A stretch of DNA of 64,000 nucleotides from Escherichia phage RB69: sequence record NC_004928.1; one strand, given 5' to 3'. Shown here in pieces: positions 308 through 39,623 of this stretch (its first letter is position 1; the number at the start of each line of letters is the position of its first letter). The translations under genes and the position numbers were made by a program. The notes beneath the pieces are model-generated. The model was given only the letters and a program-made list of their open reading frames with translations. It searched no databases and was not told the origin of the DNA.

Positions 308-315
308 TATAAATA
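308..315 (+). promoter_or_regulatory. late promoter TATAAATA upstream of gene 20
   Basis: Exact TATAAATA about 30 nt upstream of ATG. Confidence 0.6.
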
Positions 316-343
316 TAACTATAATTCCCATTTGGAGAATACA

Positions 344-3217: not shown

Positions 3218-3220
3218 ATA
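3213..3220 (+). promoter_or_regulatory. late promoter TATAAATA upstream of gene 22
   Basis: Exact TATAAATA. Confidence 0.6.
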
Positions 3221-3250
3221 ATAATGTAATCTAAACCACAGGACACTAAA

Positions 3251-4063
3251 ATGATCAAAAGAACAATTTTGAAAGAAGCTCAGAATATCGAGACTTCAGT
3301 TGCTCTTAATAGTGTTTTCGAATCAGTAGAACTGTCTCCGGACGTTAAAGCTAATTTCAGCACTGTATTCGAAGCCACCGTTAAGCAGGAAGCAGTCAAA
3401 CTGGCTGAATCTCATATCAAAGCCATCGCCGAAAAAGCCGAAGAAGAAGTTGAAAAGGCTAAAGAAGATGCTGAAGAGAAAGCTGATAAAAAATTGGCTG
3501 AACAAGCTTCTAAATTCCTGGACCATCTTGCAAAAGAATGGCTCGCAGAAAACCAAATCGCAGTTGATAAAGGCATTAAAGCTGATTTGTTCGAATCCAT
3601 GCTTGGTGGTCTGAAAGAACTGTTTGTTGAACATAACGTTGTTGTTCCAGAAGAATCTGTAGATGTTGTAGCAGAAATGGAAGAAGAGCTGGCCGAACAT
3701 AAAGAAGAAACCGCTCGTTTGTTCGAAGAAGTTACCAAACGTGATGCATATATCAATTACGTTCAGCGTGAAACCGCTATTAATGAAAGCGTGAAAGACC
3801 TGACTGAATCTCAGAAAGAAAAAGTTATTGGCCTGGTTGAAGGTATGGATTATTCTGACGCATTTGGTACTAAGTTAACTGCTATTGTAGAAATGGTTAA
3901 AGGTTCTACTAAAGAAGAAGCCGCTATTACCGAAAGTATAAATACAGTTGACAATGACGCTGCCGGTCTTAATTTTGTTGCCGAAGCAGTTGACACTACC
4001 ACAACTCAGGTAGAACAGAATTCTAATGTAAGTTTATATGCGAAAGTCGCATCTCGTTTCTAA
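3251..4063 (+). CDS. 22: prohead scaffolding core protein gp22
   Basis: 270 aa, acidic coiled-coil-like; TATAAATA late promoter at 3213-3220. Confidence 0.92.
   Translation: MIKRTILKEAQNIETSVALNSVFESVELSPDVKANFSTVFEATVKQEAVKLAESHIKAIAEKAEEEVEKAKEDAEEKADKKLAEQASKFLDHLAKEWLAENQIAVDKGIKADLFESMLGGLKELFVEHNVVVPEESVDVVAEMEEELAEHKEETARLFEEVTKRDAYINYVQRETAINESVKDLTESQKEKVIGLVEGMDYSDAFGTKLTAIVEMVKGSTKEEAAITESINTVDNDAAGLNFVAEAVDTTTTQVEQNSNVSLYAKVASRF
3937..3944 (+). promoter_or_regulatory. possible late promoter for gene 23, inside 3' end of gene 22
   Basis: Exact TATAAATA about 140 nt upstream of gene 23 start. Confidence 0.4.
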
Positions 4064-4080
4064 TTTAAAGGTTAACACAA

Positions 4081-5649: not shown

Positions 5650-5673
5650 TCTTAATTGATTAAATCTTATTTT

Positions 5674-5699
5674 GGGAGACTTCGGTCTCCCATTTTTGG
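5674..5699 (+). terminator. rho-independent terminator after gene 23, C(UUCG)G hairpin plus T-run
   Basis: gggagac-ttcg-gtctccc followed by ttttt. Confidence 0.75.
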
Positions 5700-5730
5700 T
5701 TTTATTTCTGCGCAATTTCGATGTAAGTTT

Positions 5731-5971
5731 TCAAAATATTTTGCCAATTAGGCATACCTTCTGAACATATGCCGGAGAACCGTCTTTATTTTTGAATGAT
5801 GCAAGTTTATCAGTGGCCCAATAACCTTTAGTTCGAGCTTCAGAATCAACTTTCATCCATACTTTGTTGAAGGCATTACCATTAACTTTTGCACCATATT
5901 TTTGTACTTTCGGTTACAGATCCAGCTTCCAGAACTTTTACAGTATCTCGTAAGAAACGTGCTTTAGTCAT
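5731..5971 (-). pseudogene. small ORF interrupted by a 1-nt frameshift at an A5 run (about 79 codons if corrected)
   Basis: Hand translation of minus strand: MTKARFLRDTVKVLEAGSVTESTK then stop; adjacent frame continues ...YGAKVNGNAFNKVWMKVDSEARTKGYWATDKLASFKNKDGSPAYVQKVCLIGKIF*. Confidence 0.45.
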
Positions 5972-6037
5972 TTTGTTTACTCCTCTGCAGCTGATAAGTC
6001 GATAGTATCACATACCAAATACGTTGTAAACAATCTT

Positions 6038-6072: not shown

Positions 6073-7356
6073 ATGAGTAAAATCCAAAAATTATCGCGTG
6101 AATCTACAACGTCTACCAGCAACTCAATTGGTCGCCCAAATCTCGTTGCTTTGACTCGCGCTACGACTAAATTAATATATTCTGACATCGTAGCAACACA
6201 AAGAACTAATCAACCTGTTGCTGCTTTTTATGGTATCAAATATCTTAACCCAGATAACGAATTCACATTTAAAACTGGTGCTACTTATGCTGGCGAAGCT
6301 GGATATGTAGACCGAGAAAAAATTACTGAGCTCACAGAAGAATCAAAAGCCACACTAAATAAAGGCGATTTTTTCAAATATAATAATATCGTCTATAAAG
6401 TGTTAGAAGATACACCATTTGCAGATATTCAAGAAAGTGATCTAGAATTAGCTCTTCAGATTGCAGTCGTTCATTTAAAGGTACGGTTGTTTTCAGATGC
6501 AGCGGTAACAAGCAAATTTGAAAGCTCTGGTAGCGAAATTTCTGATGCAAGATTCCAGATTAATAAATGGCAAACTTCAGTCAAATCTCGTAAACTTAAA
6601 ACCGGCCTCACGGTTGAATTAGCGCAAGATTTGGAAGCGAATGGATTTGATGCCCCTAACTTCTTAGAAGATTTGCTTGCAACTGAAATGGCTGATGAAA
6701 TTAATAAAGATATTCTTCAGTCTTTAATTACTGTATCGAAACGTTATAAAGTTACTGGAATTACTGACACCGGATTTATTGACTTGAGCTATGCATCCGC
6801 TCCAGAAGCAGGTCGTTCGTTATATCGAATGGTGTGTGAAATGGTATCACACATTCAAAAAGAGTCAACTTATACTGCGACGTTTTGTGTAGCTTCAGCT
6901 CGTGCAGCTGCTATTCTTGCTGCTTCCGGTTGGTTAAAACATAAACCAGAAGATGATAAGTATCTTTCACAAAATGCTTACGGGTTCTTAGCTAATGGTT
7001 TACCGCTTTATTGCGATACTAACAGTCCATTAGATTATGTGATCGTTGGCGTAGTAGAAAATATCGGTGAAAAAGAAATTGTTGGATCAATTTTCTATGC
7101 TCCGTATACAGAAGGTCTCGACTTAGATGACCCGGAACATGTTGGTGCATTTAAAGTTGTAGTTGATCCAGAAAGCTTGCAACCGTCTATTGGTTTATTG
7201 GTTAGATACGCTTTATCAGCAAATCCTTACACAGTAGCAAAAGACGAAAAAGAAGCGAGAATAATTGATGGCGGGGACATGGATAAAATGGCAGGACGTT
7301 CAGACTTGTCTGTTTTACTCGGTGTTAAATTGCCTAAAATTATTATAGATGAATAA
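6073..7356 (+). CDS. 24: capsid vertex protein gp24
   Basis: 427 aa, near-identical to recalled T4 gp24; TATAAATA at 6038-6045. Confidence 0.97.
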   Translation: MSKIQKLSRESTTSTSNSIGRPNLVALTRATTKLIYSDIVATQRTNQPVAAFYGIKYLNPDNEFTFKTGATYAGEAGYVDREKITELTEESKATLNKGDFFKYNNIVYKVLEDTPFADIQESDLELALQIAVVHLKVRLFSDAAVTSKFESSGSEISDARFQINKWQTSVKSRKLKTGLTVELAQDLEANGFDAPNFLEDLLATEMADEINKDILQSLITVSKRYKVTGITDTGFIDLSYASAPEAGRSLYRMVCEMVSHIQKESTYTATFCVASARAAAILAASGWLKHKPEDDKYLSQNAYGFLANGLPLYCDTNSPLDYVIVGVVENIGEKEIVGSIFYAPYTEGLDLDDPEHVGAFKVVVDPESLQPSIGLLVRYALSANPYTVAKDEKEARIIDGGDMDKMAGRSDLSVLLGVKLPKIIIDE

Positions 7357-15109: not shown

Positions 15110-15865
15110 ATGGCTAATATAATTCGTTGTAAATTACCGGATGGTGTTCATCGTTTTAAGCCGTTCACTGTGGCGGATTATAGAGACTTTTTACTAGTTA
15201 GAAATGATATCGAACATCGTTCGCCGCAAGAACAAAAAGAAATAATTGCCGATCTGATTGATGATGATTATTTTGGCGAGTACCCTAAAACATGGCAACC
15301 ATTTATATTCCTGCAAGTTTTTGCAGGCTCTATAGGCAAAACAAAAGTTCCCGTTATTTTCACTTGCCCTAAATGCTCTAAAGAAAAAACTGCACCATTT
15401 GAGATATATCAAAAAGAACTAGTCGAACCTGAACTTGATGTTGCTGGTATAAAAATACGTTTTTCTTTCCCTGAAAAGTTTTATGACAATAAAGCATTAA
15501 TGATAAGTGAAAACATAAAAGAAATATATTATAATGATGAATGGTACCCATGGAATGATTTGACTGAAGAGAACCAAATCCAAGTAATAGAAGCAATAGA
15601 CATTGACTCGCTCGAGAAGGTTATTGCTTCTATGAATCCTATTAATTTGACCCTTAGATTAGGTTGTTGTGAACGTCATGTTAAAACATATACTGATATC
15701 TTAGAGGTTTTTAAATTGTTAGTTAACCCTGATGAGATTTTTACATTTTATCAGATAAACCATTCACTAGTAAAGAGTCAATACACATTGGATTCTATTA
15801 TGCAAATGATTCCTGTTGAACGTGGTATTGCTTTAACATTAGTAGAAAAGGACCATAAAAAATGA
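15110..15865 (+). CDS. 51: baseplate hub assembly protein gp51
   Basis: 251 aa; divergent from gp26 across a late-promoter region. Confidence 0.88.
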
Positions 15866-17034: not shown

Positions 17035-17515
17035 TAAAAAGGTAATGATTCCCAAATTAGGGCTCAAACATTATAATCTTTTAAAGGACGTTAAAGGTCC
17101 TGACGAAAACATGAAAATCTTAGCTGATTCTATTTGTAAAAATATGAGTCCCGCAGATTTTGATTTTGCATGTCTACACATATTGGAATTTAATAACAAA
17201 CTTAAGTCTGAAGTTGAAAAAGACGGATTCACATATAAACTAGATGACGTCTATGTATGCCAACGAACAGAATTCCAATTCCAAGGCAATACTTTTTATT
17301 TTAGACCCCCAGGCAAATTTGAACAATTCGCTACAATCAGTGAAATGCTATCAAATTGCTTAATAAAAGTTAATGACGAAGAGAAAGAAATTTCTTTCCT
17401 TGAGATGCCTGCTTTTGTAATCAAATGGGCAGAAGACCTTTCGACAACTATTGCTATTCCAGGCCCTAATGGCCCTATTAAGGGTATAGCAGAAATTATT
17501 GGATTGCTTGAATGA
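16982..17515 (+). CDS. 28: baseplate hub distal subunit gp28
   Basis: 177 aa, overlaps gp27 3' end. Confidence 0.8.
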
Positions 17516-19284
17516 AACCTGAAGAAATGAAATCCATGCGTAGAAATAAGGTCATTGCCGATAATAAACCACAAAAAGTAGCTGCAACAGCAGCTACCGA
17601 TTCATTAGAAGCATTGAATAACATTTCATCAAAACTAGACGATGTCCAAGCTGCGTCTGAACTCACATCACAAAGTGTAGAAGATAAAGGCAATGGAATT
17701 ATTGAATCAATTGGAGACTTAAAGAATTCGACAGATAATACTGCTGAAGGCACAGAGCTTATCGCAGAAGTTATTGAAAAACAAACTGAAGTCACTAAAA
17801 GTATAAACGAAGTTTCTAGTGCAATAAGCTCTAAGTTAGACCGATTAGCTACATTATTAGAGCAAAAATTACAAACATCTACCGCTATTCAAAATACAGG
17901 AGGCACCTCTCTTGAAGTAATTGAGAATGCAATACCTGTTAAAGTGGTTGAGAATGAAACTTCTGATGAGTTGTTTAAAGCATTCCCTACACCTGAAAAG
18001 ATCGATAATAAGCCAGACGAAGATTTCTTCCCAACGCCGGTTCAAGAAAGTGCTAATTCTACTTCCGATTCTAAAGGCGGGATTAGCTTTAAATTGAGCG
18101 ATAAAATTGCAATGCTCACCAAAACAGTTCAAACCGGGTTTAATAAATCAATATCAATTTCAGACAGAATTGCTGGAATGCTTTTCAAATACACTATAAC
18201 GGCTGCTATTGAAGCAGCAAAAATGGCCGCACTTATTCTTGGTATTGTTATCGGTATTGATTTATTGATAGTCCATTTCAAATATTGGACAGACAAGTTC
18301 ACTTCTGCCTGGGATTTATTTGATGAAAACTTTACTAAATTCTCCGATGAAGCTAAAGAGTGGGGTAAATTCTTAAGTGATATATTCACTTCTATTGACT
18401 CGATAAAACAATTGTGGGAAGCTGGAGACTGGGGTGGTTTAACCGTTGCTATTGTCAAAGGTGTAGGAACAGCATTAATGAACTTAGGTGAACTAATTCA
18501 ATTAGGAATGGCTAAACTCTCCGCATCTATATTGCGTGCTATAGGTTTTGGTGATACCGCGGACGAAATAGAAGGACGTGCTTTAGAAGGATTCCAAGAA
18601 ACTACTGGGAACAAATTAAAGAAAGAAGACCAAGAGAAAGTCGCCAAATATCAAATGAAGCGTGACGACGGGGAATTAGGAACCGTTTCTAAAGGTCTTG
18701 ATATGTTACAACGCGGCAAAACATTCGTTACTAACTGGGTTCGTGGTAATGATAATAAAGAAGAGTTTAGTACAAGCGATGAGCGTGCTGCGGAATCGGC
18801 AAAATTAAAAGAGTTACCTGAAGAGGAACGTAAAGAGGCATATATAAAAGCTAATGAAACTCGGGCAGCCTTAGTTAGATTTGAGGATTATATCGATAAA
18901 ATCGATATGACTAATCCGGAAAATGCTAAAAACGTTGAGAAGTCTTATGCCGATTTAAGTAAACTTATTAAAGACCCTGAACTTAATAAAACTCCTGTTG
19001 TTAAAAAGGAATTAGATGCTAGATTTGAAAAGCTAAATAATAAAATGGCTGAAGCCAAAAAGGCTCAGACAACAGTTAAGCCTGAATCTTCGTCTAAATC
19101 TCCGGAAGCAAAACAAGTTCAGTCAATAGAGAAAGGACGTGCTTCTGAATCTAAACAACAGCAACCGGTAGCGACGATTAGTAATACAAATAATGTCGTC
19201 AAAAAGAATACCGTAGTCCAGAATATGACCCCTGTAACAAGTACAACGGCTCCTGGAATTTTCCATGCCACCGGTGTTAATTAA
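17512..19284 (+). CDS. 29: tail tape measure / baseplate hub protein gp29
   Basis: 590 aa, same length as T4 gp29; central hydrophobic segment. Confidence 0.9.
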   Translation: MKPEEMKSMRRNKVIADNKPQKVAATAATDSLEALNNISSKLDDVQAASELTSQSVEDKGNGIIESIGDLKNSTDNTAEGTELIAEVIEKQTEVTKSINEVSSAISSKLDRLATLLEQKLQTSTAIQNTGGTSLEVIENAIPVKVVENETSDELFKAFPTPEKIDNKPDEDFFPTPVQESANSTSDSKGGISFKLSDKIAMLTKTVQTGFNKSISISDRIAGMLFKYTITAAIEAAKMAALILGIVIGIDLLIVHFKYWTDKFTSAWDLFDENFTKFSDEAKEWGKFLSDIFTSIDSIKQLWEAGDWGGLTVAIVKGVGTALMNLGELIQLGMAKLSASILRAIGFGDTADEIEGRALEGFQETTGNKLKKEDQEKVAKYQMKRDDGELGTVSKGLDMLQRGKTFVTNWVRGNDNKEEFSTSDERAAESAKLKELPEEERKEAYIKANETRAALVRFEDYIDKIDMTNPENAKNVEKSYADLSKLIKDPELNKTPVVKKELDARFEKLNNKMAEAKKAQTTVKPESSSKSPEAKQVQSIEKGRASESKQQQPVATISNTNNVVKKNTVVQNMTPVTSTTAPGIFHATGVN

Positions 19285-19292
19285 GGATTATT

Positions 19293-20402
19293 ATGATTAG
19301 TGTAAAAGAAATAGTAGTAGATGCAAAGGATTTAAATAAAGCAATCCCAGTCTCAGAAAGTGCTGGGCAAAGCACTAAAACCGAAACAACTACTAAAACT
19401 TATGTTGCTCAATTTCCTACAGGAAGAGCAGCCGGAAATGACTCCACAGGAGACTTCCAGGTAACAGACCTTTATAAGAATGGATTATTATTTACCGCGT
19501 ACAATATGTCTGCACGCGATTCAGGATCCCTAAGAAATTTACGTCCGGCATACGCCGGGACTTCATCTAATGGTATCATATCAGATTTAACTGATAATGT
19601 GAAAGATGCAGTGACTAAATTCTCAAATGGATTGCTTCCTGCCGGAGCTAATAAATCTACTATAAATAAAACTCCTGTTGCTAATATACTTTTGCCACGT
19701 TCCAAATCTGACGTTGATACAACTTCACATCGTTTTAATGATATCGGTGATAGCCTTATTACTAAAGGTGGAGGTACTGCTACGGGCGTTTTAAGTAACA
19801 TTGCTTCTACTGCAGTTTTTGGTGCATTAGATTCTATTACTCAAGGGCTTATGGCTGATAATAACGAACAGATTTATACGACTTCTCGTAGTATGTATGG
19901 CGGTGCTGAGAACCGTACTAAAGTCTTTACATGGGATTTAACTCCACGTTCAACTGAAGACCTTATGGCTATTATAAACATTTACCAGTATTTTAACTAT
20001 TTCTCATATGGTGAGACCGGTAAATCACAATACGCCCAAGAGATTAAAAGTTATTTAGACGAATGGTACCGTTCAACGTTTATTGAGCCTATGACACCAG
20101 ACGATGCTGTAAAAAATAAGACATTGTTTGAAAAGATTACTGCGTCATTAACAAACGTATTAGTTGTAAGCAACCCTACGATTTGGATGGTTAAAAACTT
20201 TGGACACACATCTAAATTTGACGGGTTAACTGATGTATTTGGCCCATGTCAAATTCAAAGCGTACGTTTTGATAAAACTCCAAATGGACAATTTAATGGT
20301 CTTGCTGTTGCTCCTAACTTACCGTCAACATTTACGTTAGAGATAACAATGCGAGAAATTATTACATTAAACCGTTCTTCACTTTATGCGGGGACTTTCT
20401 AA
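19293..20402 (+). CDS. 48: baseplate tail tube cap gp48
   Basis: 369 aa; T4 order. Confidence 0.88.
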   Translation: MISVKEIVVDAKDLNKAIPVSESAGQSTKTETTTKTYVAQFPTGRAAGNDSTGDFQVTDLYKNGLLFTAYNMSARDSGSLRNLRPAYAGTSSNGIISDLTDNVKDAVTKFSNGLLPAGANKSTINKTPVANILLPRSKSDVDTTSHRFNDIGDSLITKGGGTATGVLSNIASTAVFGALDSITQGLMADNNEQIYTTSRSMYGGAENRTKVFTWDLTPRSTEDLMAIINIYQYFNYFSYGETGKSQYAQEIKSYLDEWYRSTFIEPMTPDDAVKNKTLFEKITASLTNVLVVSNPTIWMVKNFGHTSKFDGLTDVFGPCQIQSVRFDKTPNGQFNGLAVAPNLPSTFTLEITMREIITLNRSSLYAGTF

Positions 20403-21364
20403 TGTACTCTTTAGAAGAATTTAATAACCAAGCTATAAATGCAGATTTCCAACGAAACAATATGTTTAGTTGTGTATTTGCTACTACACCGTCGACCAAA
20501 TCGTCTTCACTAATTTCGTCAATTGGTAGTTTTGCTTATAATAACTTAGGGTTGGATTCAGATTGGCTAGGATTGACTCAAGGTGATATCAATCAGGGCG
20601 TAACAACCCTGATTACAGCAGGAACACAGAAATTAATTCGAAAATCAGGTGTAAGTAAATATCTGATTGGAGCAATGAGCCAACGTACGGTACAAAGCTT
20701 GTTAGGTGAGTTCACAGTAGGAGCTTATCTGATAGACTTCTTCAATATGGCATATAATAATACAGGTTTAATGATTTATTCTGTAAAAATGCCTGAGAAC
20801 CGATTATCTTATGAAACGGATTTCAACTATAACTCCCCGAACATCCGAATTACCGGTCGAGAAATGGACCCGTTAGTAATAAGCTTTAGAATGGATTCCG
20901 AAGCATCTAACTTTAGAGCAATGCAGGACTGGGTAAACTCAGTCCAAGACCCTGTAACAGGTCTTCGCGCTTTACCACAAGACGTCGAAGCAGATATTCA
21001 GGTTAATTTACATGCGCGAAATGGTTTACCACATACCGCTGTCATGTTCACTGGATGTATTCCTGTTAGCGTCTCTTCTCCTGAGTTAACGTATGATGGT
21101 GATAACCAAATAACAGTTTTTGACGTAACATTTGCTTATCGCGTTATGCAATCAGGTGCTGTAAATAGACAGGCTGCTTTAGAATGGCTGGAATCAGGAC
21201 TTATTAGTAGTGTTTCAGGAATGTTTGGAAATAATCAGAATGATTCTGGACTAGGAAGTGCAGTATCAAGACTTTCTAGATTAGGTGGGACTGCTGGTGG
21301 TGTGTCTAATATAAACACATTGACAGGTGTGGTGAATTCTGCGTCAAGAGTTTTAGGACTATAA
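20402..21364 (+). CDS. 54: baseplate tail tube initiator gp54
   Basis: 320 aa as in T4 gp54. Confidence 0.9.
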   Translation: MYSLEEFNNQAINADFQRNNMFSCVFATTPSTKSSSLISSIGSFAYNNLGLDSDWLGLTQGDINQGVTTLITAGTQKLIRKSGVSKYLIGAMSQRTVQSLLGEFTVGAYLIDFFNMAYNNTGLMIYSVKMPENRLSYETDFNYNSPNIRITGREMDPLVISFRMDSEASNFRAMQDWVNSVQDPVTGLRALPQDVEADIQVNLHARNGLPHTAVMFTGCIPVSVSSPELTYDGDNQITVFDVTFAYRVMQSGAVNRQAALEWLESGLISSVSGMFGNNQNDSGLGSAVSRLSRLGGTAGGVSNINTLTGVVNSASRVLGL

Positions 21365-21369
21365 GAAAA

Positions 21370-21392
21370 AGGGAGACAACGTCTCCCTTTAG
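21370..21392. terminator. hairpin between convergent gene 54 and alt-downstream ORF
   Basis: gggagac-aacg-tctccc with flanking A/T runs. Confidence 0.6.
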
Positions 21393-21396
21393 GGGT

Positions 21397-21690
21397 TTAT
21401 TTACGGAATGAAAGGAATGCTGGTGCTCGGAATGGAGTATCATCTTTAGAGTATTTAACTAATACGACCATTGGTACCTCTGTTTCTAAATGACCTGTCA
21501 CTACACCTATAAAAATTTGGTCGGTGTGCTCAGGGTCACGAAAGTTTTTAAGAGGTTCCATAGCAATATGGAATGCACCTGGGAATACTCGATTCAATTC
21601 GTCAATCACAGCTTCGTTAAAAACATCATCTGCTGGAATAACATTTTCAACTACTAGTTCTTGACCATTAAAGCGAAGCATAGATTTCAT
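21397..21690 (-). CDS. hypothetical protein downstream of alt
   Basis: Track ORF 21397..21762; internal Met at 21690 follows GAGGAA RBS and an early promoter-like element. Confidence 0.55.
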   Translation of the reverse strand: MKSMLRFNGQELVVENVIPADDVFNEAVIDELNRVFPGAFHIAMEPLKNFRDPEHTDQIFIGVVTGHLETEVPMVVLVKYSKDDTPFRAPAFLSFRK

Positions 21691-21719
21691 AACGGTTTCC
21701 TCATGTTGTTGATGGGATG

Positions 21720-21749
21720 ATAGTATAACACATCCATGTGCTTGTAAAC
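21720..21749 (-). promoter_or_regulatory. early promoter-like element (GTTTAC -35, TACTAT -10)
   Basis: Hexamers on minus strand in the alt intergenic region. Confidence 0.4.
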
Positions 21750-23836
21750 TATCCTTGGACAAATTTAAACGGAACTGATTCTAAATCCATTAAAGATGCT
21801 AACAATTTCAAACCTTTAGGTGCGCTAGTTTTTTCTACAAATGAAGAGAACGATACCGGCTCATCTGATTCGATTTCACCTGTCATAGCAACCACCTCAC
21901 CTGTTTCCATGAGAACATCACCATCATAAATGACAGCTTCATCTAACTGGTCTGAGGACATGACTTCAGCTTGAATAAATTTAAGGTTGGATTCTAAACC
22001 TGCACCAGTGTCAGATGACGCATCTGTAATTTTATTTATCTGCAAGAGAATGCCTCTAGGCAAAATAATTTCTTGCTCATTAGGGTGATTACTCAACTGT
22101 CCTGGATAAATCACGTTAACTTTATGAGCACCATCAATAGCCCATCCAACGTTAACACGGATTTGTTCTGGTGCATGCATAGCTGTTCTTACTTGACTAG
22201 GAGAAATAGTAACACCTTCGTCATTATTGTCAATGTTAAGCTCTTTGCGAACGTTCTTCAGGAGCAAGTCCAAGGGCAACGTTCTCTTTAAACCCACCGA
22301 AAATAATAGGAGCTTGTGAAGTGGAAACATAGTTTCTGAAGTAGAATACCTTATTTTTAACCATTGCTTCGTAAATAGGCATTCTGATAGACTGAGCTCT
22401 ATATAACGTTTGTCCTTCAGGTAACGGTCTCCATTTAAAAACGCCGAATCAAGACCATCAATAGCGCGTTTAACTTCATCTTCATCTGCAACATCGTAAA
22501 AATCTGGTTTATAACGACCTAACAACATATTATTGATATCGGTATACGCAGAAGAGGCATATTCACGAATAGCTCGTTTTTCAGCAACAGAGTATTGTTT
22601 AGGGTCCCGATTCATTGTTATATTAAAGGTGCCTCTAGCCGATTCTCGTGCATAAGTATACATCACATTAGACAAGAACGCTGATTTACGTTGTTTCCAA
22701 GTTTTTTCAGATACTTCAGCTAAAACGTCGTCGGCCAGTTGGAAATTATCACGTCTAAAATCTTCAAACCATTCGTCTTTAATAGAGTCTGCAATCTCAT
22801 TTGCAGCTTCAACAAAAGCAGCTAATGCTTTAACAGATGTTGTTTTTTCAGTTTTAATTTTCTTAGCAAACTTTTCTAAAGTTGGCTTAATAACACCACC
22901 ATAAGAAACTTCATCAGCAAATTTAAAGGATTCATCAATACGATTATAAATCTTATTTTCGATATCAGCAACTAAAGTGCCTTTTGCTGTGGACGATGCT
23001 TGGGCTAGTACTATTTCATATGCTTCAGGAAGTAATTCGGCTGTAGCCGGGCCACTAACTTCTTTAGCAGAATTTTCGTATTTCTGGAATAACTCACCTT
23101 CTTGGCGGTCCGCTTCTAAAGATTGACTTGCTGCAATAGCACGACGAGAAATTTTAGTACGAGCAATAACAGGCTTATCTTTACGTTTTTCTTCTACAGC
23201 AGCAATAGAACCAGCGATAGCCGTTTCTTTGGTGACCTTTTCGCCAGTCTTTTTACTCACATAAACTTCGCCAACATCAGAATCTACTTTCGTGTACAAC
23301 TCTGTGTTAATGTTAGGGATGCCTTTAATATCTTCAATGTTGGCATTTTTACGAACCATCATCACATAGGTGTGTTTACCTGTGAATTGATACATTGCCG
23401 ACAATACTTTAAAACGACCACCGGTTTTAGTAGAAACTAAACGAGCAAGAAGAGTTTGAAGCTGCTGTCCACGTCCTTTCAATTTCTTGGTAGGGAATCG
23501 GAACAGAACTGCATCCATACGAAGAGCTTTAACCTGTTCATATACTGTATTGAAAATGGTGTTGATTGCATCAATAGGAGCAGGACCAAGGCCATTTTTC
23601 AATTCAGCGAGATTACCCTTTTCAGATAGACTCATAATAACAACATGAGCGTATTTGTCGCCAAGTTTAACTTGTTTTACAGCATCACCTTCGGAAAGGT
23701 AAGAGAATAAGCGAACTACGATGTTTGTATCGATATCACCAATTTTCCAGACTTGTGGAACTTTAGCTTTAGGGTTCAAATTGACGACAGGAAGACTGCC
23801 TTCAGATTCAAACACTTCATTTAATTGTTCAGACAT
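21749..23836 (-). CDS. alt: Alt-like ADP-ribosyltransferase (packaged); ORF open but an internal segment appears frame-shifted
   Basis: 695 aa; T4 Alt position; ART-type helix motif YTDINNMLLGR and EQEIILPRG in ORF frame, but YRA and STS motif region reads in another frame (see findings). Confidence 0.8.
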   Translation of the reverse strand: MSEQLNEVFESEGSLPVVNLNPKAKVPQVWKIGDIDTNIVVRLFSYLSEGDAVKQVKLGDKYAHVVIMSLSEKGNLAELKNGLGPAPIDAINTIFNTVYEQVKALRMDAVLFRFPTKKLKGRGQQLQTLLARLVSTKTGGRFKVLSAMYQFTGKHTYVMMVRKNANIEDIKGIPNINTELYTKVDSDVGEVYVSKKTGEKVTKETAIAGSIAAVEEKRKDKPVIARTKISRRAIAASQSLEADRQEGELFQKYENSAKEVSGPATAELLPEAYEIVLAQASSTAKGTLVADIENKIYNRIDESFKFADEVSYGGVIKPTLEKFAKKIKTEKTTSVKALAAFVEAANEIADSIKDEWFEDFRRDNFQLADDVLAEVSEKTWKQRKSAFLSNVMYTYARESARGTFNITMNRDPKQYSVAEKRAIREYASSAYTDINNMLLGRYKPDFYDVADEDEVKRAIDGLDSAFLNGDRYLKDKRYIELSLSECLFTKQWLKIRYSTSETMFPLHKLLLFSVGLKRTLPLDLLLKNVRKELNIDNNDEGVTISPSQVRTAMHAPEQIRVNVGWAIDGAHKVNVIYPGQLSNHPNEQEIILPRGILLQINKITDASSDTGAGLESNLKFIQAEVMSSDQLDEAVIYDGDVLMETGEVVAMTGEIESDEPVSFSSFVEKTSAPKGLKLLASLMDLESVPFKFVQG

Positions 23837-23891
23837 AGTGTTTTCCTTTTAGTAATAATTTATATTTATGCCAAAAAGAGCCCGAAGGCTC

Positions 23892-24080
23892 TTAATCCAC
23901 AATCTGGAGCAAAGTACGATAAACTTCAAAATTAGGGCCTTTTTCGTACTTATCAAAATTGTCCATAAAAATATGATAGGAATCGTTATTAGGAAAATCT
24001 AATACAATTTGGGAACAAGAGGTGGAAACATCACCACCATCTTTATTAGCGACAACTACTGTTTCTAAATAAGCTTTCAT
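23892..24080 (-). CDS. hypothetical small protein
   Basis: 62 aa ORF between DNA ligase and alt, followed by hairpin. Confidence 0.55.
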   Translation of the reverse strand: MKAYLETVVVANKDGGDVSTSCSQIVLDFPNNDSYHIFMDNFDKYEKGPNFEVYRTLLQIVD

Positions 24081-25573
24081 TATACACCCGTCTGGTCCCA
24101 GGACCCAAATACGTCTTCAAACGAATCCGCTTCTGTTTTATCAAAACGGAACCCTTTAATAATTGGAAGGAAAATACCTACAGTACCTTCACGGCCTTTA
24201 GAATGAACCCAACCATTACATTCACAATCAGCGATACGTCCAATCAATTTACCTTCACGAGCTTCGGACATTAATCGTTCACGGTCCAAATCATGACGCT
24301 CGTCTAAAGGAATAAGAACCTTTACACCGTCAACTGTTTTATGAGTTGTATCTTTAAAACCTGAACCACAATCGGTTGTAATACGACGACAACGTGATAC
24401 GAGTTCGACACCACCCAATTTGTTAGGGTCTTTAGAGTGTTCATAGTATCCTACAACTTCTAAAGCTATATCAATAACTTCTTTAAATTTAATTAGGTTC
24501 TTAGAGCGTTTGTTTTCCCAATATGAATCACGGTTTTTAAGGATAATACCTTCAAGACCTTGGTCAACATATTTTTTATAAACCACTTTAGCTTCGTCAA
24601 GATTACGAACTAACTGATTTTCAATTGGCTCAATTCGTTTAAAGCCTTCAGCCATATTTTCAAGAGCAGCAAAACGAACATCGTATTTCTGACCTTTAAT
24701 TTTGCCATCAGAATAGACTTCATCTAAAGGAACATAGTCCCAGGCTTGAAGAACCATACCTTCAGCTTCTTTAGGAGAAATAGTCCCTTGAAGAGATTTA
24801 TTTGCTAAACCGTTTGAAGTGCTACGGTCTGCAACTTGTACTTCTTCGGATTCTTCATTATCACCAAATAAGAACGACAGGTCATTTCCTGAGCTCACAG
24901 CCTTTTTAATATCAAATGAATGATAAACTAATTCGCCGTCGATTAAAACCCCATTAGGGTGTCTTTCACGAGCTTCTTTAGTCATTTCCATTAGTTCATC
25001 TGCTAATAGGGTAAGACCATGGTATTCATTACCAGCACGAGAAAAGAATTGAACACCATCATCGCGAACTTCAGCGAAACAACGAGCACCATCTGCTTTT
25101 AATTGAGCAAATGCAGGCCATTTAATATTTTTAGTAATCAATTTCTCATCATATGCAGATGCTAACATCTGTGGTTGCAATTGAATAAGTCCTGGCCACA
25201 CCTTATTCGCGATAGACACTGAAGCACCTACTTCAAGGTCGCGCATCATTACACGACGAAGGACTTCTACATCATCAGGTTTACCGTCAGCGATATAACC
25301 CATGAGCTCTTTAATTGCAGCATTACCAGTGAGTTTACGAGTGGCTAATGTGAACTCAATAAAATCCAACATGTCATCTAATTCAAGAAGACCATATGCC
25401 TGAGACCTTTCACCTGGCCCAGGCCATTTCTTAATATAATACTGAATGCCACGTGCATATGTTAAACGATACACGCGTTCAAGTAATTTGTTGTCCTTAT
25501 TTTTCTTAAGGATTTCCTGTTTTGTTTTAGTAGAACCGATCGCAGCTATTTGGTTTAAAATATCTAAAATCAT
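24080..25573 (-). CDS. 30: ATP-dependent DNA ligase gp30
   Basis: 497 aa; adenylation motif KADGAR; T4 ligase similarity. Confidence 0.95.
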   Translation of the reverse strand: MILDILNQIAAIGSTKTKQEILKKNKDNKLLERVYRLTYARGIQYYIKKWPGPGERSQAYGLLELDDMLDFIEFTLATRKLTGNAAIKELMGYIADGKPDDVEVLRRVMMRDLEVGASVSIANKVWPGLIQLQPQMLASAYDEKLITKNIKWPAFAQLKADGARCFAEVRDDGVQFFSRAGNEYHGLTLLADELMEMTKEARERHPNGVLIDGELVYHSFDIKKAVSSGNDLSFLFGDNEESEEVQVADRSTSNGLANKSLQGTISPKEAEGMVLQAWDYVPLDEVYSDGKIKGQKYDVRFAALENMAEGFKRIEPIENQLVRNLDEAKVVYKKYVDQGLEGIILKNRDSYWENKRSKNLIKFKEVIDIALEVVGYYEHSKDPNKLGGVELVSRCRRITTDCGSGFKDTTHKTVDGVKVLIPLDERHDLDRERLMSEAREGKLIGRIADCECNGWVHSKGREGTVGIFLPIIKGFRFDKTEADSFEDVFGSWDQTGV

Positions 25574-25848: not shown

Positions 25849-26664
25849 TTAACAATTTATAGACCAAGTCCATTTAGACGAATCTAAAGGAAAGTTTTGA
25901 ATCGTCCACCACGGCTGCATATCGGTTGGTCCTGGAGTTCGCCAGGTGTACGGATTTGACGGAGCGCCAATTTGATTAGGCCATGCGCCTGGACTTGTTG
26001 CACCAGATTCTTTAAGCAAATCCGCCAATCGTTTTAAAAGGTCTTCACGATCTGAATCTGAATTATGCTCGGGCGGAACCAAACGAGATTCAATATCATC
26101 CCACGTGTGTACACGTTGTGCAGTGCGAGGAATATCATCACGTTCACCACGAGCCAACCAATAAATCGGTACATTAAGAATTTCTGCCGCATGGTCACAG
26201 TGATGAGCTAAATCGTCAACGTAACAAATCACGTTATATTTTGTTTTAGCTAGTTCGAATAATTGTTCCTTTGAAGAATCATGACCACACATCATTACTT
26301 CAGAGAAAGCGCCTGGGAACAAAGCATTCAAATTAAATTGTCTATTCAATCGAGCATCAATTGAATCACCTAGCGCCGTCACGGCTACAAAATTATAGTC
26401 TTCTTTTAGTTTATTGATAACTCGAAGAGCATCCGAATAAGGCGCTAAGTAACGAATAAAATCAGAGCGATTATATTTTTCTATTAATTGTTTACCAAGG
26501 TTATCGTCGGTATTGAACAGTTTACCAGGAGAAATAAATTTTTCGTCCTGAATCATTTTTAAAATATGTTCTAATGGAAGATTATATTTTTGGGCAAAAT
26601 AAGGAAGACCAGATTGCCAGCTTAAACATACACCATCAATATCAGTCAAAATAGTAGGCTTCAT
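25849..26664 (-). CDS. HAD-superfamily hydrolase-like protein with Trp/Pro-rich C-terminal tail
   Basis: 271 aa; N-terminal DIDGV motif typical of HAD phosphatases. Confidence 0.6.
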   Translation of the reverse strand: MKPTILTDIDGVCLSWQSGLPYFAQKYNLPLEHILKMIQDEKFISPGKLFNTDDNLGKQLIEKYNRSDFIRYLAPYSDALRVINKLKEDYNFVAVTALGDSIDARLNRQFNLNALFPGAFSEVMMCGHDSSKEQLFELAKTKYNVICYVDDLAHHCDHAAEILNVPIYWLARGERDDIPRTAQRVHTWDDIESRLVPPEHNSDSDREDLLKRLADLLKESGATSPGAWPNQIGAPSNPYTWRTPGPTDMQPWWTIQNFPLDSSKWTWSINC

Positions 26665-26706
26665 AAAGAGTCTCTTAATAGGTTTAACACATCAATAAAT
26701 TCAGCT

Positions 26707-27129
26707 TCAAGTTAGTATTGTATCATCTTTTGTTAGACCACTAGCCATGCTGTGCTTCAAAATTTTTCCTTTAGAGGCTTGTAAGGCATCACGAAACCCC
26801 TTGTTTTGGATCGCGGCTTCAAAATATGCATTTGTGTATAATTCTTTCCACGCTTCGGAGTATCTTGAAAATGGAACTCCTAACCAGAAGAGAGTCCCAC
26901 GGTCCTGAGCTCTTGCATAAGACCTTCCTGCTTGCTGTGCAGCCAATCCAGACAACCCAAATATACTATGTTGTTGTTCAACATTTTTCACCTTACATCC
27001 TTGGAGAAATCCTTCAAGACCTCCGAATTGAATACCATCCATAACAAAAGGCCATTGAGCAAAGTTACTTAATGCACATGACGGCCACTTGAAATTACTT
27101 CTAATCTCTAACTCAGGCATCTTTAACAC
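26707..27129 (-). CDS. NADAR / YbiA-like (DUF1768) domain protein
   Basis: 140 aa; SNFAQWPF...DG...EGFLQGCK resembles the YbiA/NADAR N-terminal signature (recalled). Confidence 0.55.
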   Translation of the reverse strand: MLKMPELEIRSNFKWPSCALSNFAQWPFVMDGIQFGGLEGFLQGCKVKNVEQQHSIFGLSGLAAQQAGRSYARAQDRGTLFWLGVPFSRYSEAWKELYTNAYFEAAIQNKGFRDALQASKGKILKHSMASGLTKDDTILT

Positions 27130-29808: not shown

Positions 29809-30117
29809 TTACATAAGAAGCAAACGTTCGACCGGAGTACCATCAACCGAAATTACTTTATCAAGGCGGAAAGAACGCCACTGACCTAACTTGGTATCGA
29901 ATGCTCGAACTGATTCACGAGGTTCAGAACGAACTTCTGTTGCCGGATTGTTATTTTCATATTTGACTTCAAGTTCATCGCGCGAGGCAAACATCGTACG
30001 AATATCACCGTTAGCCTTTTCAAATACAACACAATGAACGCCTACAGACAGAATAGTTTTAATACGTTCACGAAGAACCATAGTTTCTTGTTCAGTTAAA
30101 ATCATATTATTCACCAC
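29809..30117 (-). CDS. hypothetical protein (31.1-like)
   Basis: 102 aa ORF. Confidence 0.55.
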   Translation of the reverse strand: MVNNMILTEQETMVLRERIKTILSVGVHCVVFEKANGDIRTMFASRDELEVKYENNNPATEVRSEPRESVRAFDTKLGQWRSFRLDKVISVDGTPVERLLLM

Positions 30118-30181
30118 AAAAGTTTCGGATTTGTTCCCAATTCAGAGAACGAAGATTATTACCGAGAAGTACTGAATTACT

Positions 30182-30691
30182 TCAATACCAGCTTGGTTTT
30201 AGAATGTCTGCCCAATTTTCAGGAGATCGGTTGTATAATTCTGCGTATACAACCTTTTTAATACCTGACTGCGTAATAGCTTTAGTGCAATCAGGACACG
30301 GAGAAAGCGTAGTATATAACGTAGCGCCTTCAATAGAATTACCTTTACGAGCTGCAAACAAAATTGCATTCAATTCCGCATGGATTTCGTTATTAGCAGA
30401 CCATGCACTATGAGCGGCCCGATGTTCTTTAGCCAAAACAAAATTATCTGCCCGTCCAAATGCTGTAGTGCCTTCTTTATGTCCAGCAACGATGGCCGGG
30501 CTTGATTTATTCTTCAACCAACCATTTTCGGATGCATGTTCGCAACAGTTAACGCCACCTGCGGGTGAACCATTATATCCAGTAGAGATAATGCGTCCAT
30601 CTTTTTCAATGACCGCACCAACTTTCCATGAACAACATTTTGATTCTTGAGAAATCAAATAAGCAATTTGAAGATATGTGCTAGCTTTCAT
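30182..30691 (-). CDS. cd: dCMP deaminase, C-terminally truncated by local frame disruption
   Basis: 169 aa ORF with HAE and PCPDC zinc motifs; conserved C-terminus (LNWEQIRNFCGE) lies downstream after an in-frame TGA (see findings). Confidence 0.85.
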   Translation of the reverse strand: MKASTYLQIAYLISQESKCCSWKVGAVIEKDGRIISTGYNGSPAGGVNCCEHASENGWLKNKSSPAIVAGHKEGTTAFGRADNFVLAKEHRAAHSAWSANNEIHAELNAILFAARKGNSIEGATLYTTLSPCPDCTKAITQSGIKKVVYAELYNRSPENWADILKPSWY

Positions 30692-30942
30692 TATAGTGTT
30701 CCGTATACGCGAGTTGCTTCAACTAAACCGTCACTGCCTAATTTAAGGCTAGTAATCTGGTCACCATCTTTAGGATTAACGATTATGAGAAAAGAACGTG
30801 GAGATTCTTGAATAACTCGTAATGTTGCATCTTGGAAACGTTCAGACACCTTATTGATGAGTGCTTGAGCAAATTCTTGTACTTTAATCTGAAATTCGTG
30901 TACTGTAATTGGGGTTTCACTTAGCCTTTCGATTTCCCTCAT
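30691..30942 (-). CDS. hypothetical protein
   Basis: 83 aa ORF abutting cd. Confidence 0.5.
   Translation of the reverse strand: MREIERLSETPITVHEFQIKVQEFAQALINKVSERFQDATLRVIQESPRSFLIIVNPKDGDQITSLKLGSDGLVEATRVYGTL

Positions 30943-31668: not shown

Positions 31669-31669
<1 letters not shown>
31478..31669 (-). CDS. hypothetical protein
   Basis: 63 aa ORF. Confidence 0.45.
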
Positions 31670-32755
<1,086 letters not shown>

Positions 32756-36139: not shown

Positions 36140-37312
36140 TTAGAAATATTTTTTGTATGAATTGATTACATTTTGGTCTACATCATTATCAATTTGTGCG
36201 ACAAGATAAGAACTGATTTCAACTTCCTGAGGAGCTGCTTGAACTAAATCAGAGTTCAGATATTCACGAATCCAAGGATACGGATGCTTGGTCGGAGCAT
36301 CAGTAATTGGACATGGCAAACCGCACTGTTTCATACGAGACACAGTCAAGTAATCAACAAAAGCACACATACTCTGTGTATTGATACCTGGACATGTACC
36401 GTCTTTAAAGAGGTGTGCAGCCCATTCCTTGTACTTGACTATTAACTTCCATAAAAATGTCAACTGCTTCTTGTTCACATTCTTTAGCAATTTGAACCCA
36501 CTCATCGCCATCAGTACCAGATTGAAGTTGACGGATAATGTACTGAGTACCCTGAGATGGAGTTGTTCGTCACGAGCAATGAACTTCATAATCTTTGCAT
36601 TACCTTCCATAATTTCCATATTTTTATGGAAGTTGAAAGTACATGCAAATGATACGTAAAAACGAATAGCTTCTAAGGCGTTGATAACATGCAAACAGAG
36701 ATAAAGAGACTTCATTAAATCGCGCTTGGCGTTAAACATTATTTCTTCGTACATCTCAATATCATTCTGCTGGCATGAGCCTATTGAACACTCATAAACT
36801 TCCTTAGCATTTTCCCAATTACGAGTCTTGACTAGAACATCGTCATAATATTTACCTATTGATTCAGCTCGTTTCATGATTGCTTCGTCTAATACAATCT
36901 CATCAAATACTTTGGATGGATCGGTATAAAGATTTCGCATAATATGAGTATATGAACGAGAGTGAATAGTTTCACTGAATGTCCATGTTGCAACCCACGT
37001 ATCTAATGAAGGGTCGGAAATCAGTGCCATAAGTACCGCAGATGGGGCCCTGCCTTGGATAGAATCCAATAATGATTGATACTTAAGATTGTTTGTACAG
37101 ATGTCCTGTTGGAACTGAGGAAGCTTATTGAACTGTGCAGAGTCCAACATCAAGTTTACCTCTTCGGGGCGCCAGAAAAATGACAGGATTTCTATAAGTT
37201 CTTCAAAAACTTTATGACGCTGAATATCATACCGTGCAAGACCAAGACCAGAACCAAAGAACATCGGTTCGTTCAAAACATCGACTTGTTGTGTATTAAA
37301 AACTGTACTCAT
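36140..37312 (-). CDS. nrdB: ribonucleotide reductase small subunit NrdB; intronless, with internal out-of-frame segment
   Basis: 390 aa ORF; N- and C-terminal parts match class Ia NrdB; about 50 codons in the middle are read out of the conserved frame (see findings). Confidence 0.9.
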   Translation of the reverse strand: MSTVFNTQQVDVLNEPMFFGSGLGLARYDIQRHKVFEELIEILSFFWRPEEVNLMLDSAQFNKLPQFQQDICTNNLKYQSLLDSIQGRAPSAVLMALISDPSLDTWVATWTFSETIHSRSYTHIMRNLYTDPSKVFDEIVLDEAIMKRAESIGKYYDDVLVKTRNWENAKEVYECSIGSCQQNDIEMYEEIMFNAKRDLMKSLYLCLHVINALEAIRFYVSFACTFNFHKNMEIMEGNAKIMKFIARDEQLHLRVLSTLSVNFNLVLMAMSGFKLLKNVNKKQLTFLWKLIVKYKEWAAHLFKDGTCPGINTQSMCAFVDYLTVSRMKQCGLPCPITDAPTKHPYPWIREYLNSDLVQAAPQEVEISSYLVAQIDNDVDQNVINSYKKYF

Positions 37313-37367: not shown

Positions 37368-39623
37368 TTAAAGCTTACAAGCAGAGCAATCTTCAGCTTT
37401 AGGTGTTTCTAATTCATAGTCATCTGTACCTGACCCATCACGAGTGTTATGATAGTAGAGATTTTTTCCGCCAAAGTACCAGAAGTAAAGCAGATCGTCA
37501 AGCATTACCGACATTGGCACTTTACCTTTCTCAAATACAGCAGGGTCATAATAAGTATTAGCAGAAGCAGATTGGCACACCCATTTCAACATGATAGCAA
37601 CTTGGGTCAAATAAGGTTTATTACCTTTCTTAGCAAGTTTCCACGCGTAGTCGTAAAGACTCATGTTATGTTCGATATTAGGAACAACCTGTCGGAAGTT
37701 GCCTTCTTTAGATTCTTTAATACTTACAGGTCCACGAGGTGGTTCTATACCATTTGTGCTATTTGAGACTTGACTGCTTGATTCACATGGCATGAGAGCA
37801 CTAAGTGTACTGTTACGAATTCCATGTTCTTTTGAGTTCAGCTCGAAGTTCTTCCAGTCACAGACGTAGTTCGGGGCTGCGATTTGGTCAATCTTTTTAT
37901 TGTACCAGTCGATAGGTAATTCGCCTCTAGACCATTTAGTGTCTGAATAATACTCACAAGGTCCTTTTTCTTTGGCGAGTTTGATTGAAGCTTTGATAAG
38001 GCCATATTGCAATCTCTCGAACAATTCATGAGTCAAATAGTTAGCGTCTTCATATGAAGCAAAGTTAGAAGCTAACCATGCAGCATAGTTCGTCACACCG
38101 ACACCGAGATTTCGACGCTTTTTAGCTTTTAAAGCTTCTGGAACCGGATAATCTTGATAGTCTAACAGGTTATCAAGTGCACGTACTTGTACTTCAGCAA
38201 GTTCATTAATTTTATCTTGGTCTTGCCAATCAAATTTATCTAATACAAAAGCAGATAACGTGCATAAACCAATTTCAGCATCAGGACCATTCACATCATT
38301 AGTTGGAATAGCGATTTCACAACATAAGTTACTCTGACGAATTGGAGCTTTTTCACGAATAAACGGAGTGTAGTTATTCGTGTTATCAACAAACTGTGGA
38401 TAAATTCGAGCAGTACCAGAACGTTCAGTCATGAACAATTCAAAGAGTTCTAGTGCTTTGATTCTTTTCTTTCTGATTGTTGGGTCTTTTTCAGCTTTCT
38501 CATAAAGCTCACGGAATTTATCTTGATCTTCAAAGAATGAGTAATATAGTTCGCCTGACATTTCGTGAGGGCTAAATAAAGTAATATAATCATTTTTACC
38601 AAGGCGTTCCATCATGAGGTCATTAATCTGAATTCCGTAGTCCATATGTCGAATACGGTTTTCATCCACGCCTTTGTTATTTTTCAGAACTAATAGGTTC
38701 TCTACTTCTAAGTGCCACATTGGATAATACGCTGTAGCAGCACCACCACGAATACCACCTTGAGAACAAGATTTTACTGCAGTTTGGAAATGTTTCCAGA
38801 ATGGAATAACACCCGTATGTCGAACTTCACCCATACCGATCTTAGAACCTTCTGCACGAAGCATACCAACGTTGATACCGATACCAGCTCGTTTAGAAAT
38901 ATATTCAATAATTGATGCTGAAGTTTTGTTAATAGATTTTAACGAATCACCGGCTTCAATAACTACACAACTAGAGAACTGGCGAGTTGGAGTACGAGCA
39001 CCTGCCATAATTGGGGTTGGCAATGAAACTTGATGAGTAGAAACGGCATCATAAAAACGAATAATATGTTTCAAACGGTCATGAGTTTCGTCTTGGTGTA
39101 AGGCCATGCCAATAGCCATGATAGCAAACTGGGGAGTTTCATAAATCTTACCAGTTGTTTTATCTTTAACCAGGTATTTTTCTTTAAGCTGCATAGCACC
39201 AGCATAAGTCAGATCAAAATCTCGCTCATGTTTAATCCGAGAATCAAGATAAATGATTTCTTCTGCAGAATATCTAGACAACAACTCAGGATCATATTTG
39301 CCTTCATTAACACAATAAGAAATATGGTCGATAAAAGCAGGCGGTTCAAACTGCCCATATACATCTTTACGAAGTGCAAACATTAGCCCTTTGGCGGCGA
39401 CATACTGATAATCAGGTTCTTCGACAGAAATCGAGTTAGCTGCAACTTTAATACAAATCTTCTGGATATCTTTGGTGCTCATCCCGTCGACAAGATGGGT
39501 CTTAATTTCTTCGTACAATTCATATGGGTCGATTTGTGTTCCTTCACATTGCCAAGTTAAGACTTGAATAATTTTCTGTGCATCAAAATTTTGGGATACA
39601 CCACTGCTCTTAGTTACTTGCAT
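37368..39623 (-). CDS. nrdA: ribonucleotide reductase large subunit NrdA
   Basis: 751 aa; active-site NLCCE and C-terminal CSACKL cysteines. Confidence 0.95.
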   Translation of the reverse strand: MQVTKSSGVSQNFDAQKIIQVLTWQCEGTQIDPYELYEEIKTHLVDGMSTKDIQKICIKVAANSISVEEPDYQYVAAKGLMFALRKDVYGQFEPPAFIDHISYCVNEGKYDPELLSRYSAEEIIYLDSRIKHERDFDLTYAGAMQLKEKYLVKDKTTGKIYETPQFAIMAIGMALHQDETHDRLKHIIRFYDAVSTHQVSLPTPIMAGARTPTRQFSSCVVIEAGDSLKSINKTSASIIEYISKRAGIGINVGMLRAEGSKIGMGEVRHTGVIPFWKHFQTAVKSCSQGGIRGGAATAYYPMWHLEVENLLVLKNNKGVDENRIRHMDYGIQINDLMMERLGKNDYITLFSPHEMSGELYYSFFEDQDKFRELYEKAEKDPTIRKKRIKALELFELFMTERSGTARIYPQFVDNTNNYTPFIREKAPIRQSNLCCEIAIPTNDVNGPDAEIGLCTLSAFVLDKFDWQDQDKINELAEVQVRALDNLLDYQDYPVPEALKAKKRRNLGVGVTNYAAWLASNFASYEDANYLTHELFERLQYGLIKASIKLAKEKGPCEYYSDTKWSRGELPIDWYNKKIDQIAAPNYVCDWKNFELNSKEHGIRNSTLSALMPCESSSQVSNSTNGIEPPRGPVSIKESKEGNFRQVVPNIEHNMSLYDYAWKLAKKGNKPYLTQVAIMLKWVCQSASANTYYDPAVFEKGKVPMSVMLDDLLYFWYFGGKNLYYHNTRDGSGTDDYELETPKAEDCSACKL

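Follow-up and report, generated by a model that had tools for sequence, protein, structure and literature searches.

We found that the alt gene of phage RB69, as deposited, is open only because four coordinated changes lie close together within it, and that this scrambling of the reading frame very probably reflects a cluster of errors in the genome record and not the biology of the phage. The alt gene of RB69 itself is very probably an ordinary gene in a single frame. The window that we analyzed is a stretch of 64,000 nucleotides from the record, the 2003 Sanger reference sequence of RB69 (AY303349 / NC_004928). In alt, this record lacks one base, has gained another, and has two others wrong, all within 172 nt. 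The two wrong bases remove both stop codons of the shifted frame, so that the four changes together keep the ORF open. Based on these results, there is no biological novelty in this gene. The protein would be an ordinary Alt-like ADP-ribosyltransferase.

Four changes in the deposited alt gene

By exact protein look-up, the 695-aa product of the deposited alt ORF has the same sequence as NP_861900.1 / AAP76109.1, which is the Alt protein of Escherichia phage RB69. In the window, the ORF is flanked by the DNA ligase gene and by baseplate genes 54 and 48. The gene order (ligase gene 30, alt.1, alt, alt.-3, gene 54) matches that of phage JS09.

Part of alt can be read in two frames. The frame of the deposited ORF reads ...LNGDRYLKDKRYIELSLSECLFTKQWLKIRYSTSETMFPLHKLLLFSVGLKRTLPLDLLLKNVRKE... 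over this segment, and an overlapping frame, containing a 48-aa ORF (22236..22382), reads MPIYEAMVKNKVFYFRNYVSTSQAPIIFGGFKENVALGLAPEERSQRA. GC3 in the segment is 0.49 in the ORF frame compared to 0.30 in the other frame, and is 0.26-0.28 in the rest of alt. Leu makes up 26% of the peptide encoded by the ORF frame, compared to 9% of the whole of Alt. The peptide encoded by the other frame is identical to the Alt proteins of relatives at 54 of 56 positions. The two-frame signal is far beyond chance. An initial annotation of this DNA had proposed that the catalytic core of alt lies outside the ORF frame following a deletion and then an insertion, and we found this arrangement, and both of the peptides that it quoted, in the window. 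Its description of a Leu-rich stretch with G/C-ending codons in the ORF frame agrees with the composition given above. Its suggestion that the other frame, with a Tyr-Arg and an STS motif, belongs to Alt was borne out by the identity to relatives and by the conserved motifs.

We located the frame changes by gapped nucleotide alignment to alt from JS09 and G2469, each of which is 2088 nt (Table 1). In an ungapped comparison to these two genes, mismatches were scattered along most of alt but formed one solid block at gene positions 1414-1583, across which JS09 and G2469 are in a single frame (...LNGDRLPEGLTLYRAQSIRMPIYEAMVKNKVFYFRNYVSTSLAPIIFGGFKENVALGLAPEEVRKELN...). The extra base is within the interval 22240-22255 that had been proposed as the second site. 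The first site had been placed at a run of five Ts (22441-22437); it is actually in a TTT run 13 nt downstream, and the position first given was off by ~15-30 nt. The two T to A substitutions (at 22411 and 22315) had been missed. Putting back either T interrupts the 695-aa ORF. We calculated that the chance of two random substitutions abolishing both shifted-frame stops in the 171-nt segment of alt is ~4e-4. The chance is similar for nrdB (see below). The wrong-frame peptide in the deposited protein includes YLKDKRYIELSLSECLFTK...LLLKN.

Table 1. Features of alt, and other sites at which the RB69 record differs from re-sequenced RB69 DNA. Positions are those of the window.
Feature	Position	Strand	Description
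alt as deposited	21749..23836	(-)	695-aa ORF; from ORF list and exact protein look-up
First frame change in alt	22423..22424	(-)	TT in the record, TTT (CCGTTTACC) in every relative and in re-sequenced RB69; one base missing
Substitution in alt	22411	(-)	Coding strand A, true base T; Leu CTA to CAA (Gln); shifted-frame stop TAA to AAA (Lys)
Substitution in alt	22315	(-)	Coding strand A, true base T; Leu of STS-Leu, CTA to CAA (Gln); shifted-frame stop TAG to AAG (Lys)
Second frame change in alt	22253	(-)	Extra C (coding strand; G on + strand) in GAAGAA[C]GTTCG; original frame regained
Wrong-frame stretch in alt, 57 codons	22254..22422	(-)	True reading LPEGLTLYRAQSIRMPIYEAMVKNKVFYFRNYVSTSLAPIIFGGFKENVALGLAPEE; from alignment to JS09 and G2469, contigs L007 and L008, and Alt of T4, S16, Roth77 and an Aeromonas phage
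Probable catalytic Arg codon of R-S-E triad (LY-R-AQ)	22398..22400	(-)	True frame only; L(Y/W)R conserved in T4, S16, Roth77 and an Aeromonas phage
Ser-Thr-Ser motif (YV-STS-L)	22317..22325	(-)	True frame only; from frame translation and alignment
nrdB	36552, 36444, 36433, 36431		One base missing and another added, plus two substitutions; 40 aa scrambled
nrdA	37853, 37830		GGG to GG and AAA to AAAA, separated by 24 nt; scrambling of 8 aa
cd	30162, 30167, 30195		Single bases added at three sites and an early stop; product of 169 aa, not 193
pseT	32149-32389		Six substitutions, all nonsynonymous
rnh	44803		One base lost; product of 290 aa, not 305
ORF188c	5761-5991		14 differences, a pair of indels among them; broken in the record, intact (89 aa) in re-sequenced DNA

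Re-sequenced RB69 and related phages

We rebuilt four frame-restored versions of Alt (Gln/Gln, Leu/Gln, Gln/Leu, and Leu/Leu) and looked up each by exact sequence. The version in which all four changes were reverted (Leu/Leu; P0002) was present, exactly, on eight contigs assembled from public sequencing runs. The three versions that kept one or both Gln residues had no exact match in the protein collection. P0002 is in a 90% cluster of 289 members that includes Mosigvirus Alt proteins (JS09, G2469, HX01, F2, and others). The deposited protein, NP_861900.1, is a singleton in a collection of ~15 billion proteins and the sole member of its own 90% cluster; by exact look-up, its sequence was seen on one contig (167,560 bp). 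The differences are absent from independently sequenced RB69, and the version in the record was unseen elsewhere (eight contigs for P0002 versus one for the record protein).

The re-sequencing evidence consists of assembled contigs, which represent six or more runs with accessions in two ranges, SRR1662xxxx/SRR1663xxxx and SRR2929xxxx. A contig of 6,948 bp from SRR29299745 (L008; window positions 17270-24217) differs from the window at 22253, 22315, 22411, and 22422/3 and is otherwise identical to it. A 22 kb contig from SRR16629527 (L007) is 99.86% identical to the window and has the same four differences in alt. Among other phages, the closest reach only ~96.7% identity over 25 kb. Because L007 and L008 are nearly identical to the window while other phages are this much more distant, these contigs are RB69 itself, sequenced again. 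The initial annotation had named beforehand, as a check, read data that restore a single frame, and the contigs assembled from these two runs do so. It had also stated that the encoded enzyme was probably scrambled or inactive unless the sequence was in error. With alt in a single frame in the re-sequenced contigs, the reading of the enzyme as scrambled or inactive is not supported, and the proviso about an error is what applies.

Alt is also in a single frame in all 149 of the related Mosigvirus records. In these phages the gene is 98-98.5% identical to that in the record at the nucleotide level and is always 2088 nt. Over window positions 22200-22480, each of the 149 differs from the window by at least the four changes. 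The top identity, 98.6%, corresponds to the four changes themselves. Compared to the Alt of Mosigvirus phages (JS09, G2469, HX01, F2, and others), the record has the four changes specific to it, and the remaining differences are ordinary strain polymorphisms. We also looked for the junctions in public collections. A k-mer spanning the deletion junction of the record had no match in IMG/VR, JGI metagenomes, or GTDB genomes. A k-mer spanning the insertion junction was looked for in IMG/VR alone and was absent there. The true junction occurred once in IMG/VR, a weak positive control.

The discrepancies are not limited to alt. We compared the window to three re-sequenced stretches of RB69 (1-5994, 11746-33839, and 27368-49623; 43.9 kb in all) and found 61 differing positions in ~16 tight clusters, many of them indels (Table 1). 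Where two different runs overlapped, they had the same call at all 16 differences. The pattern of deletion and insertion that had been suggested for nrdB is there; it consists of two indels together with two substitutions, and these substitutions remove exactly the two stops (TAA and TAG) of the shifted frame. Literature searches found no documented errors in the RB69 record. A search of the window by tblastn with ORFs of relatives missed the frame switches in alt and nrdB because short matches in the other frame fall within the full-length match. Nucleotide alignment with lenient gap costs was too noisy, and we used strict gap costs instead. By exact look-up, there was no gene on record for the gp24 product of the window, and gp23 was used in its place. 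Two guessed versions of a corrected NrdB had no exact match in the protein look-up; NrdB of the re-sequenced DNA has two further differences, EKSL and F.

The restored Alt as an ADP-ribosyltransferase

The restored protein matches the family PF03496 (ADPrib_exo_Tox; gathering cut-off, 23.4 bits) over one stretch, residues 413-610, with 97.9 bits and E = 6e-28 (profile positions 14-183 of 196). The deposited ORF also scores above the cut-off (56.5 bits), with its match split in two stretches around the shifted segment. With the restored ART domain (204 aa), 1,213 phage records match at a coverage of >=80%, and the domain is unbroken among the matches listed. When solved structures were searched with the single sequence of the restored Alt, nothing matched at E <= 0.001.

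We aligned the restored segment in a set of six sequences that included Alt from T4, Salmonella phage S16, Klebsiella phage Roth77, and an Aeromonas phage. Through L(Y/W)R, (Y/F)VS(T/C)S, and ExE-(V/I)ILPRG, the restored segment is collinear with the others. In the true frame, and in the re-sequenced gene, the Arg is in the context TLYRAQ, aligned to TLYRSQ of T4. From what is known of R-S-E ADP-ribosyltransferases, this is presumably the catalytic Arg. The deposited frame reads LKDKRYIE at this site and has no counterpart there; that is, the aromatic residue followed by Arg is found in the phage gene and not in the ORF of the record. The STS motif is in the context YVSTSL in the true frame, compared to FVSTSL or YVSTSL in T4, S16, and Roth77, and the Leu that follows it, which is Gln in the record, is conserved in those three phages. 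An unrelated STS occurs by chance in the deposited frame (RYSTSE), 6 codons upstream. The ExE loop, NEQEIILPRG, is encoded downstream from the second of the frame changes, and both versions have it in frame. Its residues E184, E186, and ILPRG are invariant in the six sequences.

T4 Alt (gpAlt), the head-packaged mono-ADP-ribosyltransferase that acts on the alpha subunit of E. coli RNA polymerase, is encoded at the same genomic position as RB69 alt. T4 Alt aligns with the restored RB69 protein through LYR, VSTSL, and NExE-ILPRG, and the alt product of T4T is 50% identical to the restored ART domain. In contrast, the deposited RB69 ORF, with 57 codons out of frame, lacks the Arg and the true STS motif, a difference from T4 that is not found in the re-sequenced gene. 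PF03496 is also shared with the R-S-E ADP-ribosyltransferase toxins of bacteria (C3, VIP2, and iota-like). Unlike these toxins, Alt has a phage-specific N-terminal part of ~400 aa. By homology, then, RB69 Alt is predicted to be an ordinary Alt-like mono-ADP-ribosyltransferase of the R-S-E type. As a homolog of T4 Alt, it would be packaged in the head, would be injected along with the DNA, and would modify the alpha subunit of host RNA polymerase.

Origin of the changes

Tight clusters, a large proportion of indels, and the pairing of -1 and +1 changes are what poorly covered Sanger reads yield, and not what mutation yields. Compensated double frameshifts occur as errors in early Sanger genomes of low coverage, and the RB69 record resembles these in having -1/+1 pairs 24-170 nt apart with miscalls nearby. 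Three of the RB69 indels, one in alt (TTT to TT) and two in nrdA (GGG to GG and AAA to AAAA), are in homopolymer runs, as in that class of errors. Unlike that class, the miscalls in alt and nrdB fall exactly on stops of the shifted frame, which random error does not predict.

The laboratory that sequenced RB69 used plasmid shotgun libraries and PCR gap closure, and regions toxic to E. coli were under-represented (PMC1524935). Poor representation of toxic regions would fit low coverage over the ART domain, and the indels probably came from base-calling errors in such a poorly covered stretch of the assembly. The two stop-removing substitutions may have been introduced, or picked among ambiguous calls, during manual finishing guided by ORFs. 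Two substitutions that happen to hit both stops are improbable by chance, and this points to ORF-guided editing. We favor editing as their source, with appreciably less confidence than we have in an error of the record as such. Survivorship alone, in which only errors that preserve an ORF escape finishing, does not explain the removal of stops. A finisher might have resolved ambiguous calls at stops by hand so that ORFs expected from T4 stayed open, and might have left stops where there was no such expectation or attention, as in ORF188c and at the 3' end of cd. Not all of the clusters had their stops patched (in the record, cd and ORF188c are just broken), and so manual editing, if there was any, was selective.

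It is conceivable that the 2003 stock of RB69 truly carried this allele, with a -1 deletion, two mutations that removed stops, and a +1 insertion, and made an Alt that was full-length, catalytically dead, and still packaged. The gene alt is dispensable in T4, and a phage with such an allele would be viable. The changes are also exactly those needed to keep the ORF open, as selection for a full-length protein would give, and the re-sequenced contigs may all stem from the stock of another laboratory, that is, from one stock that differed from that of 2003. However, this would require four independent mutations in 172 nt and none in the surrounding 6.9 kb, and the pattern of four events recurs in nrdB. 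There are also indel pairs or runs in nrdA, ORF188c, and cd and nonsynonymous clusters in pseT, a distribution typical of read errors. We know of no reason why selection would maintain the C-terminal part of an enzyme without its Arg and STS motifs, and the allele was unseen in any other public data that we examined. We consider a true allele very unlikely. A more specific version, in which the stock carried compensated alleles of alt and likewise of nrdB, and the dead full-length proteins were kept by selection (Alt could, for instance, have a structural or packaging role that does not depend on ADP-ribosylation), seems slightly less likely still.

An error of the record could also have begun as a mutation in cloned DNA. 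T4 ADP-ribosyltransferases are hard to clone in active form. If the ART domain of RB69 is toxic, then only inactivated inserts would survive in E. coli, and a mutant clone could have given the consensus; this would fit with the under-representation of host-deleterious regions in plasmid libraries (PMC1524935). However, one frameshift is enough to inactivate the enzyme, and toxicity accounts for neither the compensating indel nor the removal of two stops. Similar clusters are also found in genes with no obvious toxicity (nrdA, nrdB, pseT, and ORF188c). We regard a mutant clone as unlikely, if somewhat less so than a true allele, and we rejected toxicity as the sole cause since it leaves the compensation and the removal of stops unexplained. 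Programmed ribosomal frameshifting at both sites could in principle give a normal Alt from the deposited sequence. What speaks for it is that the true frame is intact between the two sites, and nothing further. By direct reading, there is no slippery heptamer at either junction (CCGTTACCT and GAAGAACGTTCG), and the arrangement was found in 0 of the 149 relatives. RB69 DNA from other runs is in a single frame, with nothing to recode, and on this basis we rejected frameshifting, which we find barely credible.

The record is very probably in error, and this matters because RB69 is a model phage and its genome a widely used reference, with RefSeq and UniProt entries that contain wrong residues or false truncations. 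Errors of this kind can be mistaken for pseudogenization, recoding, or lineage-specific divergence. Those in NC_004928 would mislead structure prediction, phylogenies, and variant calls from read mapping. Since editing appears to have removed some stops, an intact ORF in the RB69 record does not guarantee that the frame is correct. The affected products in the window are Alt (NP_861900.1 / Q7Y4U1), NrdB, NrdA, Cd, PseT, RNase H, and ORF188c.

Scrambled segments in nrdB and nrdA

The initial annotation had likened the frame disruption in alt to one in nrdB, and the comparison held. Relative to re-sequenced RB69 (contigs assembled from public sequencing runs), nrdB in the record has lost one base, gained another, and acquired two substitutions, the same four-change pattern found in alt. 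The two substitutions abolish a TAA and a TAG of the shifted frame, and 40 amino acids directly downstream of the EQLH iron-ligand motif are scrambled. Near the 5' end of the gene, the record also lacks 3 nt, which turns EKSL into EIL, and has C in place of F. In re-sequenced RB69 (contig L009), NrdB is normal, with 391 amino acids.

In nrdA, a pair of homopolymer changes (GGG to GG and AAA to AAAA, spaced 24 nt apart) converts DWEELRAELKEH to DWKNFELNSKEH in the record. The corrected NrdA protein (P0017) has an exact match in the re-sequenced contigs.

Positions of the features and of sites at which the record and re-sequenced RB69 differ
Feature	Window position	Strand	Differing sites or remarks
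RB69ORF188c	5761-5991	-	between genes 23 and 24
gene 24	6073-7356	+	
chance Ser-Thr-Ser, shifted deposited alt frame	about 22334-22342	-	
gene 30.3	26664-27120	-	
cd (dCMP deaminase)	30107-30691	-	30162, 30167, 30195, 30232
pseT	31669-32568	-	32149-32389
nrdB	36140-37312	-	36552, 36444, 36433, 36431; also 37098, 37184-37188
nrdA	37368-39623	-	37853, 37830
rnh (RNase H)	gene start 45672	-	about 44803
small clusters or single sites	3260-3266; 15266-15268; 26710-26713; 26967-26970		
further small clusters or single sites	28519; 29043; 30850-30936; 42490		

Changes in cd, pseT and rnh

Three single-base insertions inside 34 nt of cd create a shifted stretch in the record. This stretch contains a stop that was left unpatched, and the open reading frame is 169 amino acids long, compared to 193 in re-sequenced RB69. 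The rnh gene in the record has lost one base close to its 3' end, which stops the reading frame at 290 amino acids, whereas RNase H has 305 in both re-sequenced RB69 and relatives. The pseT differences are six substitutions, each of them nonsynonymous; examples are V to G, E to K, K to N and L to P. This part of the record resembles sequence from a low-quality read.

Genes 23, 24 and 30.3

The small open reading frame RB69ORF188c is broken in the record by 14 clustered differences, among them a -1/+1 pair separated by 150 nt. Three re-sequenced contigs carry it intact (89 amino acids), resembling reading frames of the related phages JS09 and Shf125875. All of the RB69 contigs that we fetched end at window position 5994. 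The gp23 of the window was found in the gene-position index, on 14 contigs, but the gp24 product had no exact match there. The absence of gp24, together with the contig ends, may reflect a further discrepancy in the record or a break in assembly at the gp23/gp24 paralogues.

Gene 30.3 has one extra base near its 3' end compared to JS09 and Shf125875, in the record and in re-sequenced DNA alike. Its product is 137 amino acids in re-sequenced RB69 and 152 in these two phages. The extra base appears to be a true difference between strains rather than an error of the record.

A chance motif in the deposited Alt

The deposited Alt frame contains a Ser-Thr-Ser (in KIRYSTSETM) six codons upstream of the true YVSTSL. 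This chance occurrence, which arises from the near-repeat TCTACTTCA / TCCACTTCA, means that the deposited protein could mislead a motif scan.
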